Source: Levilactobacillus angrenensis (GTDB lineage: Bacteria; Bacillota; Bacilli; Lactobacillales; Lactobacillaceae). From it: 40,000 nucleotides of DNA. The notes beneath the pieces are model-generated. The model ran no database searches. It saw only the letters and a program-made list of their open reading frames with translations, and had not been told where the DNA came from. A program made the translations under genes and the position numbers. Within the stretch, counting starts at the first letter, position 1. Each line of letters starts with the position of its first letter. The stretch is taken from the NCBI RefSeq assembly GCF_003946085.1, contig NZ_RHOB01000005.1:17716-57715 (forward strand). The letters run 5' to 3'. Of this stretch, positions 1 through 39,802 are shown piece after piece.

Positions 1-356
1 ACGACGTCAACTGGGCCGGCTTTTATTTGTATCAACCGGCAACCGACGATCTCATCTTAGGCCCCTTCCAAGGAAACGTGGCCTGTGTCCACATCGAAAA
101 TAACCGCGGGGTCTGTGGCACTGCCCTGGCAACGCAGACGGTGCAACGCGTCGCTGACGTCCATCAATTTGCCGGCCACATTGCCTGTGATTCCGCCAGC
201 AATTCCGAAGTCGTGGTGCCACTGATTTTAGCCAACGGCAACCCCCTGGGCGTCATGGATATTGATTCCCCTAGTCTGGACCGTTTCAGTGCCGCTGACC
301 AAGCCGTTTTAGAAGAATTTGCCCGCGTTTTGTTAAAACACGTTGACAACCAGTAG
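1..356 (+). CDS. GAF-domain protein, free methionine-(R)-sulfoxide reductase-like (5' end outside window)
   Basis: Frame open from base 3 (DVNWAGFYLYQP...) to TAG at 354-356. The blocks NWAGFYL, LGPFQG..AC, GVCG and HIACD..S.SE.VVPL are typical of the YebR/MsrC GAF family. Confidence 0.8.
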   Translation, partial: DVNWAGFYLYQPATDDLILGPFQGNVACVHIENNRGVCGTALATQTVQRVADVHQFAGHIACDSASNSEVVVPLILANGNPLGVMDIDSPSLDRFSAADQAVLEEFARVLLKHVDNQ

Positions 357-372
357 GCTTTCTGGTTATACT
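343..372 (+). promoter_or_regulatory. Putative sigma-A promoter of rpsD, followed by a ~180-nt untranslated leader (373-554)
   Basis: TTGACA at 343-348 and TATACT at 367-372 with an 18-nt spacer. A long leader before rpsD fits known S4 autoregulation in Firmicutes. The leader structure was not folded. Confidence 0.4.
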
Positions 373-554
373 GGTCGTTGTGTAAAATAATGCAGCGATA
401 AGTGGTAAGCTCGTCAACAGATTGTTGCCGTTACATTGGTTCAAGAAGTAACCTGCGGCTGCATAGGGTGAAACTTGCAAAGCAACCTGCACGAATACTA
501 AACTTATAAACAGCTTATTTTACTCCAAATAATATTTTATTGGAGGAACTATCT

Positions 555-1160
555 ATGTCTCGTTACACTGGCCCAAGCTGGCGTATTTCCCGTCGTTTAG
601 GGGTATCCCTTTCCGGCACTGGTAAAGAATTAAACCGTCGTCCTTACGCACCTGGTGATCATGGTCAAGGTCGTCGTCAAAAGTTATCTGAATACGGTAC
701 GCAATTGCGTGAAAAGCAAAAGCTCCGGTTCACTTACGGCATGACTGAACGTCAATTCTACAACTTGTTCAAGCGTGCCGGCAAGATCTCTGAAGGTACT
801 CATGGTACTAACTTCTTAATCTTGCTCGAACGTCGTCTGGACAACATGGTTTACCGTTTAGGTTTGGCAACGACTCGTCGTCAAGCTCGTCAATTGGTTA
901 ACCATGGTCACATCACTGTTGATGGCAAGCGCGTTGACATCCCTTCATACGAAGTCGAAGTTGGCCAAGTCATCTCTGTTCGTGAAAAGTCCAAGGACAT
1001 GGCCATCATCAAGGGCGCTGTTGAAGCCGTTGTTGGTCGTCCACAATACGTTCAATTCGACGCTGACAAGCTGGAAGGTTCTCTTACCCGCTTCCCTCAA
1101 CGTGAAGAATTAGACGCAGAACTTGACGAATCTCTTATCGTTGAATACTACAACCGTTAG
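555..1160 (+). CDS. rpsD: 30S ribosomal protein S4
   Basis: [16 protein letters not shown]... is the canonical S4 N-terminus, and an S4 RNA-binding domain follows ([27 protein letters not shown]). GGAGG lies 7 nt upstream of the ATG at 555. The TTG at 540 in the ORF track is upstream of that SD. Confidence 0.97.
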
Positions 1161-1256
1161 AGATTTCGGTCTTTCTTGGTTGCTCTGTGGTGCTTTAAAC
1201 GCTGGTATTACGGCATTCTTAAAATTCCGTTTTCTATTGATTACTACTGATTACCC

Positions 1257-1337
1257 CCATTCTGTGGGAGATTTTGTGGGAGATTTTTAGGACAGCGTCA
1301 AGGATTATAGAGGTGCGCACCTTCCATTTTGTGGGAG
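1257..1337 (+). repeat. Three copies of TGTGGGAG; candidate att/arm-site region at the host-prophage junction
   Basis: TGTGGGAGATTT is tandemly repeated at 1263-1274 and 1275-1286. CCATTCTGTGGGAG at 1257-1270 recurs as CCATTTTGTGGGAG at 1324-1337, where it forms the 3' half of the terminator. Confidence 0.3.
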
Positions 1338-1349
1338 GTGCGTTTTTTT
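1316..1349 (+). terminator. Rho-independent terminator (probably the rpsD terminator)
   Basis: CGCACCTTCC (1316-1325) pairs with GGGAGGTGCG (1333-1342): 10 bp with one G-U, a 7-nt loop, then T7 at 1343-1349. Confidence 0.75.
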
Positions 1350-1419
1350 ATGAAAACTTCCTCTACTGGATCAACATCGTAACATTAATAAACACTGACT
1401 ACTTAGGAGCGATTGTCTT

Positions 1420-2271
1420 ATGAAACGAAAAAAGGTAAATAGAATCCTCATCAAGGATAGACATCAAATCAGCGGCTTCAAAGAGGAAACAGTGGCTGAA
1501 GCACTGTTAAACGTAAAAAGGATGTGGGAAACAATTGATAGCTTATCTGTTGATGAATTGAAAAACATTTTACCTCCTCAGCTTATATTAAACTCTCGTG
1601 TTGGAACACTACGGCCCGGTACTATTTATTACAGGGCCCGTATTACGGATGCTAAAAATTACCGAAATATTGGTTATTGGGATGCTTCTCAATTTTGGGA
1701 AGCGCCTAAAGAGTATGTCAAGCATTGGGGACGCTTAAATCGTCCCCATGAATCCGTCCTATACTTATCTAGTGATGTGTCGCAAACCTTTAAAGAAATA
1801 CGTTATCAAGTGAAAAAGAGTCGGCACTATGCGGTCGTTGTTAACTCATACAAGGTTACTAAACCTATCACGGCCACACAAATTGGATATTTTGGTAAAA
1901 GTGGAAGCGTAGCAGACATATATTCAAAAATGATTAGTGATATATTCTCCCTTCCTTCAGAAAAGTTTGGAGAAAACGTATATAAACTGTCAAACTTTTT
2001 GTCGAATTTCTATAATTTTGTTCCCAATAATGCAGCTGCATTTTTCTTCACGCCAGTACTAAATCCCCAAAATGATATTTTGAATTTAGCAATAAATCCA
2101 TCCGATGCACACAAATACTTTGAGTACAACGGTTCAATTGTAATCCCTAAATACAGAGAATCGGTTGACGGTAACATAACTGTAGTTTCAGCAAACGACG
2201 ATGCCTTCAATCTCCTAGATCCGTCAAAAAATAAAAGATGGATTTTTGATAACTTCAAAATTAAATATTAA
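1420..2271 (+). CDS. RES-domain protein (NAD+-targeting toxin family), orphan; no cognate Xre/DUF2384 antitoxin ORF
   Basis: RPGTIYYRAR, then HWGRLNRPHESVLYLSSDVSQTFKEI (the RES signature GR.N....vlYls....a..E), then a distal FFFTPV...NDILNLAINP block. AGGAG lies upstream. The segment is clearly AT-rich and on the opposite strand to the phage genes. Confidence 0.7.
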   Translation: MKRKKVNRILIKDRHQISGFKEETVAEALLNVKRMWETIDSLSVDELKNILPPQLILNSRVGTLRPGTIYYRARITDAKNYRNIGYWDASQFWEAPKEYVKHWGRLNRPHESVLYLSSDVSQTFKEIRYQVKKSRHYAVVVNSYKVTKPITATQIGYFGKSGSVADIYSKMISDIFSLPSEKFGENVYKLSNFLSNFYNFVPNNAAAFFFTPVLNPQNDILNLAINPSDAHKYFEYNGSIVIPKYRESVDGNITVVSANDDAFNLLDPSKNKRWIFDNFKIKY

Positions 2272-2284
2272 AGCAGCGTAAAAG

Positions 2285-2324
2285 GAAAGCCACCCTACCC
2301 ATCAATTTGGATAGAGTGGCTTTC
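2285..2324. terminator. Hairpin between the convergent RES gene and endolysin gene (bidirectional terminator candidate)
   Basis: GAAAGCCACCCTA / TAGAGTGGCTTTC forms a 13-bp stem with one mismatch and a 14-nt loop. It lies 3 nt after the endolysin stop and 13 nt after the RES stop. Confidence 0.6.
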
Positions 2325-2327
2325 GCG

Positions 2328-3089
2328 TTACTTGAGTTTTTTCACGTAATCTGTGTTGCTAGTGATATATAGACCATTTCCCAGCTTCAGCCGTGTAATC
2401 TTACCATACCCAACTACACTAGCAATATCAAAGATTGTCCCCGGCTTAAAGGTCAGTTCCCTTTTCTTGAACGCCTTGTCATGGTACCGCGTCACATTAG
2501 TCTTAGCCTTCACTTGCTTGGCCGCCTTCAAATAGGTGGCCTTTTTTGCTGGTGTGGAAGCCGAACCACCAACGCCATTCTTCAAGTCCTTGGCAAACTG
2601 ACTCTTACTGATACCCCACTTCTTAAGATAGCCGTATGGATCCTGGTGGTCACCCCAGAGGTTATCGGACACCCACTTGTGGGTCTTGATTCCATTACCA
2701 GCTCCGTCCAAAGCAAGCGGAATCCCGTATTTCTTAGCATAATACCGAATCACCCATACGTAGCGCTTATAGCTGGCATCGAAACGCGTCTGCGTGTTAA
2801 CGTGGGCCAATTCCACTTGAAACGGGCTGCGTTCGTTAGCAGGACTGCCAGCGCCATAAGCGATGTATCCCGGCGTCCCGACGATGTAAATACCTTGGTC
2901 ATCCACAATAGCATGCGTGTACGCATTCTGCCAGTGACCGCGCATGTAGCTAGCCTCGTTCTTGGCACTTCCGACTCCCTTATTGTTATCATTACCGGTG
3001 TCATGGGCAATGATGTACTGATGGGACGCTTTACCACTAGAACCCTGGTTGGCCCCTAACTCGTAGCTATGATTTAAACTATAACCCAT
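2328..3089 (-). CDS. Endolysin: N-acetylmuramoyl-L-alanine amidase (Amidase_2/PGRP type) with a C-terminal SH3-like cell-wall-binding domain
   Basis: [11 protein letters not shown]...NEASYM...THAIVDD...QVELAH are amidase_2 blocks. The C-terminal ~70 aa are basic and beta-rich. It sits directly downstream of the holin with an ATGA overlap. Confidence 0.85.
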
Positions 3090-4603: not shown

Positions 4604-5029
4604 TCACTCCTTAATTTTTTCGATATTGATTTTAACTGAACCGGACATACCGATATAAAAGTTCTGAGCATCGACTCTATCTGTACTGCTGTACGACACC
4701 GCGCTAATTGTCATACCATCATCGCTAATCATTAATCTAACACCACCTATAGTGGCACCATAATTTTGCATACAGTTTCCAACGAAGTTATTTGCCCCAG
4801 CAAAATTAACAAACCTAAAGCCATCAGGTGGATTAATTTTGAAAGACATCGTTGACGTGGAAACCATACCAAAAATTTTCATTTGAGTATTATCCACTTG
4901 AGACAACAGCAATCCACTACTAATTGTTCCGACAAAATTTGTATACGGTTTCCACTGATTTATCCGGTCATAAAGCACCTGGTTACCCAGGGTAATCTTG
5001 GATACATCATCGCTAATTGCTAATCCCAT
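4604..5029 (-). CDS. Tail-fibre-region paralogue 4 (141 aa)
   Basis: N-terminal DVSKITLGNQVLY and central INPPDGFRF motifs are shared with the other three paralogues. GGAGG lies 9 nt upstream. Confidence 0.75.
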   Translation of the reverse strand: MGLAISDDVSKITLGNQVLYDRINQWKPYTNFVGTISSGLLLSQVDNTQMKIFGMVSTSTMSFKINPPDGFRFVNFAGANNFVGNCMQNYGATIGGVRLMISDDGMTISAVSYSSTDRVDAQNFYIGMSGSVKINIEKIKE

Positions 5030-5077
5030 AAGTGTTCGCCTCCAATCAAAGACGAACCCTTATGAGTTAGTGAAATT

Positions 5078-5131
5078 CTATAGGGTTGCCCCCCCCCGAA
5101 CATTTACGGTGCTTGTGAATTTATCGTACAT
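5078..5131 (-). CDS. Mini-ORF A (17 codons, MYDKFTSTVNVRGGATL) containing the G9 tract
   Basis: AAGGAGGA lies 7 nt upstream of the ATG, inside the end of the upstream gene. It is homologous in layout to mini-ORFs B and C. Confidence 0.5.
   Translation of the reverse strand: MYDKFTSTVNVRGGATL
5089..5097 (-). repeat. Homopolymer: C9 on the plus strand = G9 on the coding strand
   Basis: Counted directly: ...gttg ccccccccc gaac... Confidence 0.95.
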
Positions 5132-5133
5132 GG

Positions 5134-5628
5134 TTAGTCCTCCTTGATTACATTGAATTGGATATCTGCAGAAAATAATACATTAGCAGCTCCAGGCCCG
5201 CCATATGAGTTGTTGAGCACCCATGTTTGGCTACCTTGATTTGCCGCATAGTTATTTGAGATTTGCCCATAACACTTATTTCCATCGTATTTCATCGGAA
5301 CAGCATGTCCTCCTCCCGCTCCTGAATCACCAATAGTAAAAGTTGCTGGGTTATTAGACGCGAAGCTATACCCATTTGGCAACTCTAATGCCAGTCGCCA
5401 TTTTTTAATGCCCTCACCAGATGGGATTGTAACCGCGCGGATGCCTTTAAAAGCTGCAATACCGGTTTGAGGGTCAAATTTCATAATTTCCATACCGACA
5501 AAATCCGTTCCCTTTGTCCCGTTGTCTGGAAGCTCAATCCACGTAGTATTCGGGTCTTGCCGCTCCCACAGAGTCTCACTGCCAAGGGTGATTTTCGCTA
5601 CATCGCTAGACATGCTAACCTCACTCAT
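5134..5628 (-). CDS. Tail-fibre-region paralogue 3 (164 aa from MSEVSMSSDVAKITLG)
   Basis: Motifs DVAKITLGSETLW and LELPNGYSF. The start at 5628 gives the same N-terminal length as its paralogues, with GGTGGTGA as the SD. The ATG at 5613 is an alternative start. Confidence 0.75.
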   Translation of the reverse strand: MSEVSMSSDVAKITLGSETLWERQDPNTTWIELPDNGTKGTDFVGMEIMKFDPQTGIAAFKGIRAVTIPSGEGIKKWRLALELPNGYSFASNNPATFTIGDSGAGGGHAVPMKYDGNKCYGQISNNYAANQGSQTWVLNNSYGGPGAANVLFSADIQFNVIKED

Positions 5629-5661
5629 GGCAGTCACCACCAGTCTGAGTAGAACCAGCGG

Positions 5662-5718
5662 TTAGAGGGTGGTTTCTACCCCCCCCCCCGACATTTTAAG
5701 CGTGTTAACTAGTTTCAT
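5662..5718 (-). CDS. Mini-ORF B (18 codons, MKLVNTLKMSGGGVETTL) containing the G11 tract
   Basis: AAAGGA lies 8 nt upstream. An in-frame ATG at 5727 has no spacer to the SD. Confidence 0.45.
   Translation of the reverse strand: MKLVNTLKMSGGGVETTL
5679..5689 (-). repeat. Homopolymer: C11 on the plus strand = G11 on the coding strand
   Basis: Counted directly: ...ttcta ccccccccccc gaca... Confidence 0.95.
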
Positions 5719-5732
5719 TTGTCTCATCCTTT

Positions 5733-6233
5733 CTAGTCCGGTATTACAGACGTTGTAGTCCAGCAATGATATCCTGTGTAGTTATCATCTAAATCGCTCA
5801 TAAAAATAATTATTCTTCCTGCAGGGTAAACTGAAGCTGAGTTCATTTTCCAATTGAATTTTGCACTAATTGAATCACCTGACATGGTGAAAGACAAATC
5901 ACCATAGTAGGATCCAGTCCCATACATAATTCCAGATGTGGCATTACTAGTTTTGCTTCCGAGTGGGAAAGTACTGTCAGTCTTGCTAAACCGATACCCA
6001 TCTGGCAGCGTTAAAAGAATCTTGTTCCATGTACCTTGACTATATGTCCATGTGATATCAGCAGCTCCAATAAAACTAGTAACGCCTGTCGATGCATCAT
6101 AGTGCATCAAAATTGGCGTGCCCGAAAAGTCTGCATTGACCATACATGGTAGCCACACATCTTCCGCATTCACAAACTCGTTTCCGGCCAGTGTCAATCG
6201 TGATATCTTGTCTCCGCCTACTGTGAGTGTCAT
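5733..6233 (-). CDS. Tail-fibre-region paralogue 2 (166 aa)
   Basis: Motifs DKISRLTLAGNEF and LTLPDGYRF. GAGGTGA lies 6 nt upstream. Confidence 0.75.
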   Translation of the reverse strand: MTLTVGGDKISRLTLAGNEFVNAEDVWLPCMVNADFSGTPILMHYDASTGVTSFIGAADITWTYSQGTWNKILLTLPDGYRFSKTDSTFPLGSKTSNATSGIMYGTGSYYGDLSFTMSGDSISAKFNWKMNSASVYPAGRIIIFMSDLDDNYTGYHCWTTTSVIPD

Positions 6234-6266
6234 AAGGCATCACCTCGGTGGTTCAGACGAGTATTT

Positions 6267-6308
6267 CTACCCCCCCCCCATGATAAATGGGGTTAATTTA
6301 TTAGTCAT
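6267..6308 (-). CDS. Mini-ORF C (13 codons, MTNKLTPFIMGGG) containing the G10 tract
   Basis: TAGGAGGT lies 6 nt upstream of the ATG and overlaps the stop of the upstream paralogue. A TAG follows the G run directly. Confidence 0.5.
   Translation of the reverse strand: MTNKLTPFIMGGG
6270..6279 (-). repeat. Homopolymer: C10 on the plus strand = G10 on the coding strand
   Basis: Counted directly: ...ttcta cccccccccc atga... Confidence 0.95.
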
Positions 6309-6319
6309 GGTATTACCTC

Positions 6320-6847
6320 CTATACTTTCTCAAGTCCGATGATTGCAGGACCACCAAAATTATCGTCTGTAGCAGAGACATGGTTGATGTCATTACCGTT
6401 AAAGTTAATCAACACACGTATTTTTCCATAAAGATTACTGTTATGTTGAGCTCGCACAACTGTGACATTTCCATCTGCAAAAGAAATATATCCATAGCCA
6501 CGCTGAACGGCTTGATTGGATCCTGATGTTGTATACATACTCGTATAAACTAGAATTGTCGGTCCATAAGATGGTCCAACTTGCCAATTATGATCTAGAA
6601 AAGTATACCCGTTGGGTGGATTTAGCAACTTAAAAGACGGCGTGTACAAGCTATCCGATGTTGCTTGGGTCAAATAGCCTAAGCTTCCAACTAATCCTGC
6701 TGTTCCATCGCCGTAATCCTTAAAAAACACATTGCCGCTCACCCCATCAGGTAGCTTCAGCGGAATCCATCCATCAGAATTCTGCCAGACAGTGTCGCCG
6801 CCCAACGTAATCTTGCTGACGCTATTTGGTACTTCCAATTCAGCCAT
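6320..6847 (-). CDS. Tail-fibre-region paralogue 1 (175 aa from MAELEV)
   Basis: Motifs SVSKITLGGDTVW and LLNPPNGYTF. The start overlaps the fibre stop (TAATG), with GGGGAGGTG upstream. Confidence 0.8.
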   Translation of the reverse strand: MAELEVPNSVSKITLGGDTVWQNSDGWIPLKLPDGVSGNVFFKDYGDGTAGLVGSLGYLTQATSDSLYTPSFKLLNPPNGYTFLDHNWQVGPSYGPTILVYTSMYTTSGSNQAVQRGYGYISFADGNVTVVRAQHNSNLYGKIRVLINFNGNDINHVSATDDNFGGPAIIGLEKV

Positions 6848-7773
6848 TATGCTGCACCTCCCCATGGAGCCGGTTCAGCGGCTGGGCGCGTGCCATCCTT
6901 GTGTACGATAATTGTCGTTGGATGCGCTGCCACATAGGCCGTGACTGCATCCGCATCATCATCGGCATAGACGGTAGTCACGCCTAGCACGCTGGCCCCA
7001 TCAACGCTTAAATTACCCGGGTCGAAGTCAACCTTGCTACCCTTGCCTGCTTCGCTCACCGTGACTACATGATTCTCATCGGCAGGCGTGATAACCTGCT
7101 TGTCCACAGTGATAGTGCCGTCGGTATTATCCCGCACATAAGCCCCATCAGCTGTCTCTCGGGCTACGTAAGGACTCCCATTGGCATTGGTCGGGTCTTT
7201 CAAGAACTTCCACAGAGCCGCAATCTCAGCATCCTTATCTGAATACATCAGTGTAGCTGGCAGGATTACTTTGTGGGCTTCAATCGCCTTATCCACGTAT
7301 TCCTTGGTTGCCATCCCGGCTGGGTTGATAGTCACCTCGACATTCTCGGCCTTGCCGACAATCATGTAGACGATCATGCCGAACTGCATCAAAACTTTAT
7401 CGTTAAAGTCCGGAATAAACTCCGGCTTAATGGCCTTGACCACGGCATAGAGAACTTCTGACTTACTGTCACCGGTCTCAGTAGCATACAGGCCAACCGC
7501 ACCGATTGAATAGCTCTCAGTAAGTCCTGAATTTTCAAACGTGACGTCAGTCCCCACAATGGCGCCGTTGCCATCAGGAGAACTCAGCCGGTCGTTGATG
7601 GTACCTGTTTGCACCTCATTTGGTAGTGCCGTCAACTCAGTCACATCCACATCCGACAAGTCATCAGCTGTGGAAGCTACCCGGGTAATCGTAAAGCTAG
7701 TCTTTCCGTTGGCTGCCAAACTAGATAGCCGCAACCCTTCATTCGTTAACTCAGACGCATCATACTTACTCAT
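6847..7773 (-). CDS. Tail fibre protein with a P2 gpH-like N-terminal (tail-collar fibre, DUF3751-like) domain
   Basis: LTNEGLRLSSLAANGK..FTITRVA...LPNEVQ...IGAVGLYA...EVTINPAGMATKEYVDKAIEAH parallels the P2 gpH N-terminus (…TIDTTTVMATQDYVDDKIAEH). Confidence 0.8.
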   Translation of the reverse strand: MSKYDASELTNEGLRLSSLAANGKTSFTITRVASTADDLSDVDVTELTALPNEVQTGTINDRLSSPDGNGAIVGTDVTFENSGLTESYSIGAVGLYATETGDSKSEVLYAVVKAIKPEFIPDFNDKVLMQFGMIVYMIVGKAENVEVTINPAGMATKEYVDKAIEAHKVILPATLMYSDKDAEIAALWKFLKDPTNANGSPYVARETADGAYVRDNTDGTITVDKQVITPADENHVVTVSEAGKGSKVDFDPGNLSVDGASVLGVTTVYADDDADAVTAYVAAHPTTIIVHKDGTRPAAEPAPWGGAA

Positions 7774-38048: not shown

Positions 38049-38258
38049 CTAATCTTGAATGTCCAAAACTCGATAGACTTTCTGTCGAATTTCAACCGAC
38101 TTGGGCGACATATCCGCATGAATCGCGCGGTTAAGTTGCACGGGTTTTTCGTTGATCAGACTAGCCAACTCCACCTGCGTCATGTCTTTTTCAAGTAGAC
38201 GCATCTTGATGCGGTTGGTGATGGCTTTAGCACCATCGACTAAACTTTGTTCGGTCAC
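38049..38258 (-). CDS. XRE/Cro-like HTH early regulator
   Basis: MTQVELASLINEKPVQLNRAI is an HTH. 69 aa. Confidence 0.7.
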   Translation of the reverse strand: MTEQSLVDGAKAITNRIKMRLLEKDMTQVELASLINEKPVQLNRAIHADMSPKSVEIRQKVYRVLDIQD

Positions 38259-38309: not shown

Positions 38310-38666
38310 ATGAAGATTAACTACAATGCGTTACGCTCAACTATGGTTACATTTCAATCAGAACCAATGAATCCCAATGTAGAAGATGTGATAGATAAAA
38401 CTATCGCTGAGGGATTCACTCGAGAAGATGTCACGTACGCTGTAAAGCAAGCCATTGATTCTGGACTACTTCAAGGAAATATAATGTCGACACTCTCCGG
38501 CTCTCTTTTCTTTACTGTTAGTGACATAACCCCTCAGGGACACCAGTTTATTGATGCCATAACTGAAGATACGCACTGGAATCGTGTTAAGAGTTTTTTA
38601 AAGGAAGAAGGACTCCCATTAACAGTCGGTACGATCAGTAAGGCCATTGCTAAAATCTTCTTTTAG
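38310..38666 (+). CDS. DUF2513-like (YjcQ-like winged-helix) protein
   Basis: ITPQGHQFIDAITEDTHWNRVK matches the DUF2513 pattern (T.eGH.FLd.ir....W...K). Confidence 0.6.
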   Translation: MKINYNALRSTMVTFQSEPMNPNVEDVIDKTIAEGFTREDVTYAVKQAIDSGLLQGNIMSTLSGSLFFTVSDITPQGHQFIDAITEDTHWNRVKSFLKEEGLPLTVGTISKAIAKIFF

Positions 38667-38865: not shown

Positions 38866-39039
38866 GACTATGGTCTAAAATAAGCGTATAAGACATAAGC
38901 AAATAAGCCCTTCCTATCAGTGTCTACTCGCCAAAGCCTTCACTGACAGGACTTGGTTTCTTATTGCTTAATTACTTGATGAATACATTATTGCACTAAA
39001 GTCTAAAAATGTAAAGCATGTTATTTCACTTTAGTCTAA
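38866..39039. promoter_or_regulatory. Genetic-switch intergenic region with three operator-like 13-mers
   Basis: CACTAAAGTCTAA at 38994-39006 and CACTTTAGTCTAA at 39027-39039 are 33 bp apart. GACTATGGTCTAA at 38866-38878 matches 11 of 13. There are also four ATAAG units at 7-8 bp spacing (~38876-38910). Confidence 0.5.
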
Positions 39040-39071
39040 TTTGTATTGTCAATATTAGGAGAAATGCTGAT

Positions 39072-39386
39072 ATGACACTACTTGAGCGAATAAAAAAATT
39101 AGCCAAAAGTCGTGGATATTCTTTATCTGCTTTAAATGATAAAGCAGGCCTTGGAAAGAACACAATTTATTCTTGGAAGCACAAAGATCCTAGTACAGAA
39201 AATCTACAGAAAGTTGCCAGTGTCTTAAGCGTTACGGTGGATTACCTACTTGGAGAAGAGGGTGAGGCTGAATCACCCAAGAAGTCAGTTGACTTAAACG
39301 ATGATGATGCTCTTTTAACTTTTGATGGGAAACCAATTCCTGAAGAAGATCGAGAACTTATCAAACGATTACTGCGAGGTAAATAA
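39072..39386 (+). CDS. XRE-family phage repressor (CI-like)
   Basis: MTLLERIKKLAKSRGYSLSALNDKAGLGKNTIYSWKH is an HTH. It is followed by an ImmA gene. The start was moved from 39018 to the SD-preceded ATG. Confidence 0.8.
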   Translation: MTLLERIKKLAKSRGYSLSALNDKAGLGKNTIYSWKHKDPSTENLQKVASVLSVTVDYLLGEEGEAESPKKSVDLNDDDALLTFDGKPIPEEDRELIKRLLRGK

Positions 39387-39388
39387 GT

Positions 39389-39802
39389 ATGGATGATATC
39401 ATGACAGAACTAATCAATTACGCAATGTGGGAAAAGCACATCTCCGTGAAACTGTCCTCTGAGTTGTCCCCGTACACACCTTCCGTGGCTGACTCTGAGA
39501 CAAGAAGTATTCTAATCAACACCAACTGGTATCTTCAACAGCAGTTGCCCTTGCACCTAGCACATGAAATAGCCCACATCATAAATGGTGATCATGCCAC
39601 CCATCCGTTGTACTTTAGTCCAATGCAATCTGATTACAAAATGGAATTGAACGCCAACCGAACTGCCATCAAACTTCTCATTCCATACTACTTACAGGAA
39701 CGGAGTTCAGAACAAGTCAATGTAACCGAATTCATGACTTGTTTTGTCATTCCCTCTCATTTGGAAAACATTGTGAGGGAGGAGCTACGCGAAGCCTTGT
39801 AA
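39389..39802 (+). CDS. ImmA/IrrE-family metallopeptidase
   Basis: HLAHEIAHIINGDH contains HExxH. It shows the usual pairing with an XRE repressor. Confidence 0.8.
   Translation: MDDIMTELINYAMWEKHISVKLSSELSPYTPSVADSETRSILINTNWYLQQQLPLHLAHEIAHIINGDHATHPLYFSPMQSDYKMELNANRTAIKLLIPYYLQERSSEQVNVTEFMTCFVIPSHLENIVREELREAL

Follow-up and report, generated by a model that had tools for sequence, protein, structure and literature searches.

A divergent, stand-alone RES-family gene carried as exchangeable prophage cargo beside rpsD in Levilactobacillus angrenensis, with a possible role in NAD+-directed phage defence

In the conflict between bacteria and phages, the depletion of nicotinamide adenine dinucleotide (NAD+) holds a central place, and temperate prophages carry defence or exclusion genes (morons) next to their attachment (att) site or lysis genes. 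The gene considered here is such a prophage-borne candidate: it lies at positions 1420–2271 (+) of a 40,000-nucleotide (nt) stretch of the Levilactobacillus angrenensis genome (contig NZ_RHOB01000005.1, positions 17,716–57,715), which we refer to as the window, and it encodes a RES-like protein of 283 amino acids (aa). RES domains have been classified as ADP-ribosyltransferases (ARTs) that have Y and N where the R-S-E clade has S and E (Iyer et al., PMC9503650). The RES–Xre toxins (COG5654–COG5642), among them MbcT (Rv1989c), Res/PrsT, NatT, VPA0770 and ParT, are compact proteins of ~150–190 aa encoded beside an Xre/DUF2384 antitoxin. MbcT carries the RES triad R47-E69-S126; its toxicity requires R27, R47 and Y58 and is limited in the E69A variant, and S126 is dispensable, S126A being still toxic (PMC6436930). 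The recently described aRES proteins are stand-alone RES proteins of defence islands that protect against diverse phages, depleting NAD+ by phosphorolysis on infection, with ADP-ribose-1''-phosphate (ADPR-1''P) as the product and growth arrest as the outcome; they are defined by PF18870 (HEPN/RES-NTD1) together with RES, both by hhsearch, and by a length of 300–600 aa (Osterman et al., bioRxiv 2026, 10.64898/2026.01.28.702374).

A first-pass annotation, made from the letters of the window, had read this gene as an orphan member of the RES toxin family placed in a moron slot between the endolysin gene and the attachment junction, and had suggested that it might serve the lysogen as a defence factor. 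The open reading frame (ORF) and the motifs that it quoted are present: RPGTIYYRAR at aa 65–74, GRLNRPHESVLYLSSDVSQTFKEI at aa 104–127, FFFTPV at aa 208–213 and NLAINP at aa 222–227. The assignment to the RES family also stood. That the protein is homologous, if divergent, to the RES branch of ART-fold proteins is established on sequence profiles and a predicted structure, because the Pfam matches of the family, profile–profile alignment and a confident model with its Foldseek matches all agree. A word-indexed search with the window protein recovered just nine relatives, and an exhaustive search with a profile, covering 1.84 billion representatives (clusters at 50% identity) recovered 377 at E ≤ 1e-3 and 112 at E ≤ 1e-10; most of the 377 are 250–330 aa long. 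Pfam RES (PF08808) is matched by seven of the nine close relatives (E ≤ 1) and by 42 of the 137 members of a family alignment drawn from the profile-search relatives (A3), at E ≤ 0.01 with a best value of 8.4e-10. One full-length relative, from Secundilactobacillus pentosiphilus (39% identity), carries the UniRef name “RES domain-containing.” When A3 was aligned by hhalign with a reference alignment of 30 PF08808-annotated proteins (A5), many of which also carry PF18870 and thus have the aRES architecture, the probability was 98.0% (E 1.8e-13) over 170 columns, corresponding to query aa 65–245.

The AlphaFold2 (AF2) model computed from the 137-sequence alignment reached a mean predicted local distance difference test score (pLDDT) of 92.1 and a predicted template modelling score (pTM) of 0.88. 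It supersedes an earlier model from nine sequences (pLDDT 66.8), weak when taken alone, which had ranked NatT (8qnl) first. Foldseek comparison of the current model with the PDB gave the RES toxin VPA0770 as top match (8gug_A; probability 0.99, template modelling (TM) score 0.48 on the target), followed by ParT (6d0h/6d0i; probability 0.97–0.98, TM 0.50 on the target) and then by ADP-ribosyltransferases of the diphtheria, pertussis and cholera types. The family is remote in sequence from every solved RES toxin: PDB searches with the single protein, with a nine-sequence profile and with the 137-sequence profile returned no RES chain. A match to the Scone designer beta-propeller in the PDB search (E 1e-4) was rejected as spurious, being the sum over a triple repeat whose domains each have an i-E of 17–34.

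Conservation of the active site is pronounced. R72, R105 and Y115 are invariant in A3 (137 of 137 sequences each), N107 and E126 are kept in 136, R74 and Y188 in 133 and N222 in 125. In the hhalign comparison R72, R105 and Y115 fall on the invariant R155, R182 and Y192 of A5 and E126 on the invariant E203, while further conserved A3 columns meet the invariant R157, G181-R182-x-N184, Y275 and N304; by motif position R72, R105 and Y115 correspond to R27, R47 and Y58 of MbcT, and E126 is the Glu that MbcT has as E69. The Ser column, invariant as S297 in A5 and represented by S126 in MbcT, is occupied by Pro212. An active-site alignment, which the first-pass annotation had proposed as a check, thus upheld the catalytic Arg and Glu (R105 and E126, and with them R72 and Y115) and failed on the Ser, so that an intact R-E-S signature has to be given up. 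Loss of the Ser need not inactivate the enzyme, because MbcT S126A stays toxic. Since all residues that are key in MbcT and in the ART fold are kept apart from this one, the window protein is predicted to be an enzyme that is probably active. The family is under purifying selection, with a ratio of nonsynonymous to synonymous divergence (dN/dS) of 0.146 in one pair of relatives (L005 and L010); between the window gene and an L. brevis homologue (L001) dN is 0.19 and dS is saturated.

Set against the aRES proteins, the window gene resembles them in being single, without an operonic partner, in having relatives in defence or mobile-element contexts, and in its RES core, in which the columns of two Arg, Tyr, Glu and Asn match the aRES-like set A5. 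It differs from them in lacking PF18870 (no match even at E ≤ 10) and a Zn-ribbon, in having instead a short, unrelated helical N-terminus that leaves A5 positions 1–148 without a counterpart, in its length, which is under the aRES range, in the loss of the Ser of R-E-S and in being carried by Lactobacillaceae prophages. The RES–Xre toxins share with the window protein the ART-like RES fold, providing its best structural matches, as well as the YR.R, GR.N...Y and A..E motifs and the residues essential in MbcT. Unlike these toxins, the window gene has no adjacent Xre/DUF2384 antitoxin, and its product is ~100 aa longer owing to N- and C-terminal extensions (the structural targets have 156–160 aa), carries Pro in place of Ser and is so distant that a sequence search of the PDB is blind to the relationship even with the 137-sequence profile. 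The N-terminal 64 aa and the C-terminal 38 aa are less conserved across the family and absent from minimal RES toxins; the former are also unrelated to PF18870, and among the latter conservation (W274, F279) is limited to the close clade. By these sequence comparisons the window protein is outside both RES–Xre and aRES as they are defined, though homologous to both, and we regard it as representing a RES family that is uncharacterised and has an architecture of its own. The further suggestion that single-gene RES defence as such is uncharacterised is outdated, as aRES provides a precedent (10.64898/2026.01.28.702374), even if the window protein fails the aRES architecture. The gene is also comparable to other prophage morons in being AT-rich cargo of opposite orientation, placed at the end of the prophage in a hypervariable slot and swapped in sister prophages, with the difference that this cargo is of a RES-type family without an entry in PADLOC v2 or PHROGs.

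The prophage concerned is myovirus-like and temperate and extends from position 2328 to the window end, with transcription on the minus strand (Table 1). The endolysin gene is the last of the lytic module, and beyond it on the same strand follow holin, baseplate, tape-measure, sheath, capsid, terminase and replication genes; the 9.7 kb of prophage next to the RES-like gene gave no megablast match among GenBank phages. The RES-like gene is on the strand opposite to the lysin and all structural genes and has 36.3% G+C, compared with 47.1% for the prophage, in line with the first-pass description. It is preceded by an AGGAG ribosome-binding site 10 nt before its ATG. The convergent RES-like and lysin genes are separated by a hairpin that is stable on both strands and has no T-run on the plus strand, and which is mainly the lysin terminator.

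Two related prophages occupy the same rpsD site in L. hammesii (L016) and Lactobacillus sp. HBUAS51381 (L021). The lysin 3' end and hairpin (window 2286–2400) are conserved in both despite different cargo, and from the junction to the hairpin their DNA is unlike that of the window: the slot holds a gene for a 160-aa membrane protein in L021 (3797–4297), and genes for a 301-aa multi-pass membrane protein, a 187-aa protein and a 152-aa protein in L016 (3797–6182). This alternative cargo is likewise AT-rich (32–36% G+C) and without annotated function; its proteins gave no significant match in Pfam or PADLOC, with only weak matches to “2TM effector” models. L. brevis (CP168078 and three further assemblies, L001–L004) has a 71%-identical copy of the RES-like gene after the same lysin at a different chromosomal site, where the host flank is a UvrA-like gene; no tRNA was found by a search around this junction. 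Because the slot differs in the sister prophages and the L. brevis copy sits at another host site, the cassette at ~1352–2285 is, as comparative sequence analysis indicates, exchangeable prophage cargo, which bears out the moron slot proposed earlier.

Table 1. Coordinates of the RES-like gene, its parts and the surrounding features in the window
Feature	Position	Strand	Remarks
rpsD (ribosomal protein S4), host gene	555–1160	+	chromosomal side of junction
Host rpsD 3' region, structured spacer and terminator, outside cargo	1161–1351	+	homology to L016, L021, L011
Host/prophage (att) junction, approximate	1344–1356	.	divergence point of three lysogens and empty site (alignment, BLAST end-points)
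Phage-side leader, 68 nt	1352–1419	+	with AGGAG at 1405–1409
Stand-alone RES-superfamily gene, AT-rich prophage cargo	1420–2271	+	283 aa, ATG start
N-terminal extension, helical, aa 1–64	1420–1611	+	hhalign, model secondary structure
RES/ADP-ribosyltransferase-fold core, aa 65–245	1612–2154	+	hhalign mapping, Foldseek
Core codon R72	1633–1635	+	
Core codon R105	1732–1734	+	
Core codon Y115	1762–1764	+	
Core codon E126	1795–1797	+	
Core codon Pro212	2053–2055	+	
Core codon N222	2083–2085	+	
C-terminal extension, aa 246–283	2155–2268	+	conservation limited to close clade (W274, F279)
Stable hairpin between convergent RES-like and lysin genes	2278–2331 (hairpin ~2285–2324)	.	right edge of cargo slot
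Endolysin, Amidase_2 and DUF5776	2328–3089	-	last gene of lytic module
Cro-like gene	38049–38258	-	
CI-like repressor	39018–39386	+	lysogeny module
ImmA/IrrE protease	39389–39802	+	lysogeny module

The left edge of the cargo was located by comparing the window with the rpsD loci of 21 Levilactobacillus species using BLAST and alignment. The window starts in the Levilactobacillus chromosome, with a GAF-domain gene at 27–356 and then rpsD, whose product has 99% protein identity to that of L. fuyuanensis and whose DNA is collinear with at least 20 Levilactobacillus genomes. Host collinearity reaches window 1351–1356 in L. hammesii, Lactobacillus sp. HBUAS51381 and L. fuyuanensis (L011), the last of which has a prophage-free site where ordinary chromosomal genes come after the rpsD region. 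As the second att copy and the integrase are beyond the window, the position of the junction is approximate (~1351). The repeats and terminator that the first-pass annotation had seen upstream of the gene are there, as three copies of TGTGGGAG (1262–1269, 1275–1282 and 1331–1338) and a hairpin at 1315–1343 followed by T7 (-28 kcal/mol, z = -6.9). Since they are collinear in Levilactobacillus genomes, including one without the prophage, the 190-nt spacer, the TGTGGGAG copies and the intrinsic terminator are, by sequence comparison, host DNA and form the 3' region of rpsD, as that annotation had considered simplest. The weaker idea it had offered, that the repeat-plus-terminator leader acts as an RNA antitoxin in a type III-like layout, is therefore ruled out, because 1161–1351 is host sequence found in genomes that have no RES-like gene. 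A short TCTGTGAGAGATTTT similarity, seen upstream of the RES-like gene in L. brevis, was weighed as a candidate integrase arm site; this reading was given up, since in the window the copies are in host DNA.

No protein antitoxin was found either: there is no ORF within the 259 nt upstream (1161–1419) or the 56 nt downstream (2272–2327), no DUF2384/Xre partner among the eight lysogeny-module proteins scanned and no shared partner gene among relatives, so that the orphan status claimed for the gene was confirmed. The last point comes from 17 neighbouring genes, taken from six contexts (L005, L010 and L091–L094) and compared all against all by BLASTP, among which no family was shared; the idea of a conserved partner gene was rejected on this result. 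The RES-like gene stands alone in every context examined, and the company of TIR/ThsB and ToxN/AbiQ genes is seen case by case.

Relatives of the gene are spread over prophages, plasmids and islands, mainly in Firmicutes among the cases that could be placed; the exact window protein sequence has no record in the contig index. The closest homologue (P0002, 81% identity; L096:2666–3124 (-)) is on a short contig with no lysin beside it, ~1 kb from a gene for a 152-aa ThsB-type TIR protein and a universal stress protein gene, and the cassette therefore occurs outside the prophage slot too. Homologues with 44–48% identity are found in siphovirus prophages and four IMG/VR contigs, where they are co-directional within lytic operons, after an ArpU-like regulator and before HNH/terminase genes. 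In one of these siphovirus prophages (L010:5076–9440), the homologue is preceded by a ParE/DUF6290 toxin–antitoxin (TA) pair and by a gene pair for an AAA+ ATPase (346 aa) and a Peptidase_S8 protein (752 aa), an early-region cluster that looks like defence cargo. The S. pentosiphilus copy is in an island with SocA/Panacea, RelB, IS110 and resolvase genes; the island of a Paenibacillus copy contains integrase fragments and a TIR protein, and a copy from a metagenome directly follows the integrase gene of a prophage. A full-length, 24%-identical member annotated “hypothetical protein” is encoded on the Listeria innocua plasmid pLI203 (NZ_CP071158; L095:5995–7668), immediately upstream of a ToxN/AbiQ type III toxin gene; the mobilizable plasmids concerned are ~83–86 kb in size. 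P0009, a 383-aa protein from a 4.2-kb ENA contig, is chimeric: its C-terminal ~100 aa share 63% identity with the final third of the RES-like protein, and its N-terminal ~280 aa are unrelated and at a guess tail- or structural-protein-like. The chimera may have arisen by gene fusion, may be left over from recombination or may be an artefact of assembly.

Taking these observations together, we favour, at about even chances, a reading in which the gene encodes an abortive-infection or superinfection-exclusion factor that protects the lysogen by attacking NAD+. The RES-like protein would be produced in the lysogen and would stay inactive through control in cis, which its N- or C-terminal extensions perhaps provide; we propose inactivation in cis because no antitoxin exists. 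The helical N-terminus may be a regulatory or sensor module and, with the C-terminal extension, is the obvious if speculative candidate for such regulation. Infection by another phage would then trigger an attack on the nicotinamide–ribose bond of NAD+, either by phosphorolysis to nicotinamide and ADPR-1''P, as in MbcT and aRES, or by hydrolysis. The resulting NAD+ depletion would arrest the cell and abort the infection, and in this way the lysogen population, and hence the prophage, would be protected.

Several points weigh against this reading. No sigma-70-like promoter was found by a promoter scan of the 68-nt leader, with the strong rpsD terminator just upstream, and a scan of the leader in L. 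brevis gave nothing convincing. The position of the siphovirus homologues fits a role in the lytic cycle at least as well as one in lysogen defence. It is because of the missing leader promoter and these lytic-operon homologues that we rate a defence role no higher than even. Furthermore, the window protein as a single sequence reaches 16.1 bits against PF08808, where the gathering score is 23.2 (E 0.012), and this sub-threshold match covers profile positions 10–55 only, the N-terminal third of the model; the Pfam match anticipated by the first-pass annotation was thus missed by the single protein and obtained by the family profile. The Foldseek E-values are modest (2e-3 to 2e-2, with target-normalised TM scores of about 0.5). 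The RES Ser is kept in 105 of the 137 A3 members and has given way to Pro or Ala in the entire close clade of the window protein. PADLOC, PHROGs and NCBIfam scans of the window protein gave no match, although the silence of PADLOC v2 is uninformative because it misses an aRES-like control protein as well. Lastly, the activity, toxicity, expression and phage resistance of family members are predictions from sequence only.

ParT ADP-ribosylates Prs, and Alt, ModA and ModB of phage T4 ADP-ribosylate host proteins. By analogy, the window gene might encode an enzyme of the phage's own cycle that ADP-ribosylates a host or competitor protein, or destroys a molecule derived from NAD, for host take-over, counter-defence or competitor exclusion instead of abortive infection. 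The co-directional siphovirus and IMG/VR homologues between ArpU-like regulator and HNH/terminase genes speak for such a role, as does the high rank among the structural matches of ParT, a RES toxin that ADP-ribosylates its target, and a missing antitoxin is natural for an enzyme without indiscriminate toxicity. However, both here and in L. brevis the gene runs anti-sense to every lytic gene and is at the att end, sister prophages hold unrelated cargo in its place, both close and distant relatives also occur outside phages, beside TIR and AbiQ genes, and no homologue is detectable by tblastn in 50,697 GenBank phage genomes or by a PHROGs scan of all 137 family members. We consider this explanation unlikely, if still deserving of weight.

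A toxin whose antitoxin, protein or RNA, is unrecognised or distant and acts in trans, in the service of prophage addiction or persistence, appears improbable. It would agree with the fact that all structure-solved RES proteins are type II toxins with Xre/DUF2384-type antitoxins (8gug, 6d0h, 8qnl) and with the phage-borne RES–HTH TA pairs noted by Iyer et al. (PMC9503650). The empty flanks of the gene argue otherwise, as do the upstream DNA, which is host sequence present without the gene, the eight lysogeny-module proteins scanned, among which no DUF2384 was found, the unrelated neighbours in the six contexts compared and the ~100 aa by which the protein exceeds minimal RES toxins. More doubtful still, in our estimate, is that the RES fold has lost its catalysis or been repurposed, for instance for binding or as a decoy, in a protein for which NAD+ chemistry would be irrelevant. 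The replacement of Ser by Pro or Ala across the close clade and the sub-threshold Pfam score would suit such a protein, but the two Arg and the Tyr that are essential in MbcT, together with the Glu and Asn, are invariant or nearly so in 137 diverse sequences, purifying selection is seen in one pair of relatives, and the toxicity of MbcT S126A (PMC6436930) shows that a RES protein can dispense with this Ser.

A wider reading would join the defence and lytic-cycle roles, and we put it forward as a distinctly unlikely one. The ~285-aa family with its 377 clusters would be an unrecognised, self-regulated RES class used in two ways by temperate phages: att-proximal copies would be lysogen-expressed abortive-infection genes, and copies in the late or packaging region of siphoviruses would be offensive or counter-defence weapons of the lytic cycle acting on NAD+ or by ADP-ribosylation. 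The short extensions would, in this class, stand in for both the antitoxin and the aRES sensor domain. As part of this reading, integration might leave the gene, itself promoter-less, behind the rpsD terminator and structured 3' region, and its expression would then depend on read-through from the ribosomal-protein gene.

Other features of the window were observed in passing. The rpsD 3' region is conserved across Levilactobacillus and is predicted to adopt a long-range fold ahead of the terminator (-60.7 kcal/mol, z = -3.8), with compensatory changes at eight pairs among five sequences. An Rfam scan of window 1–2600 gave a chance miRNA match alone, and the spacer fits no Rfam family; the region could be a structured 3' untranslated region or a 3'-derived small RNA of rpsD. 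Between the baseplate genes and the holin/lysin module (4604–6865 (-)), four tandem genes encode weak paralogues of 141–181 aa (25–30% identity, E 1e-4 to 4e-9), which may be diversified tail-fibre or receptor-binding accessory proteins. Between the Cro-like and CI-like genes, a DUF2513 protein (E 1.7e-16) is encoded at 38310–38666 (+), possibly another lysogen-expressed accessory gene.

A prophage-borne, NAD+-targeting defence gene would not surprise specialists; the family found here is nevertheless unannotated and sizeable, being below the Pfam cut-off and without a model in PADLOC v2, PHROGs or NCBIfam, and thus missed by every library tried at a time when stand-alone RES defence has been described only recently. 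Its carriers are phages of food-fermentation lactobacilli, plasmids and defence islands. If the family is active, it would enlarge the set of NAD+-targeting immunity genes, would indicate that a RES core can be restrained without either an antitoxin or the aRES N-terminal domain and would provide Levilactobacillus strains with a compact phage-resistance determinant; should its role lie in the lytic cycle instead, it would be a RES enzyme of a kind rarely encoded by phages.

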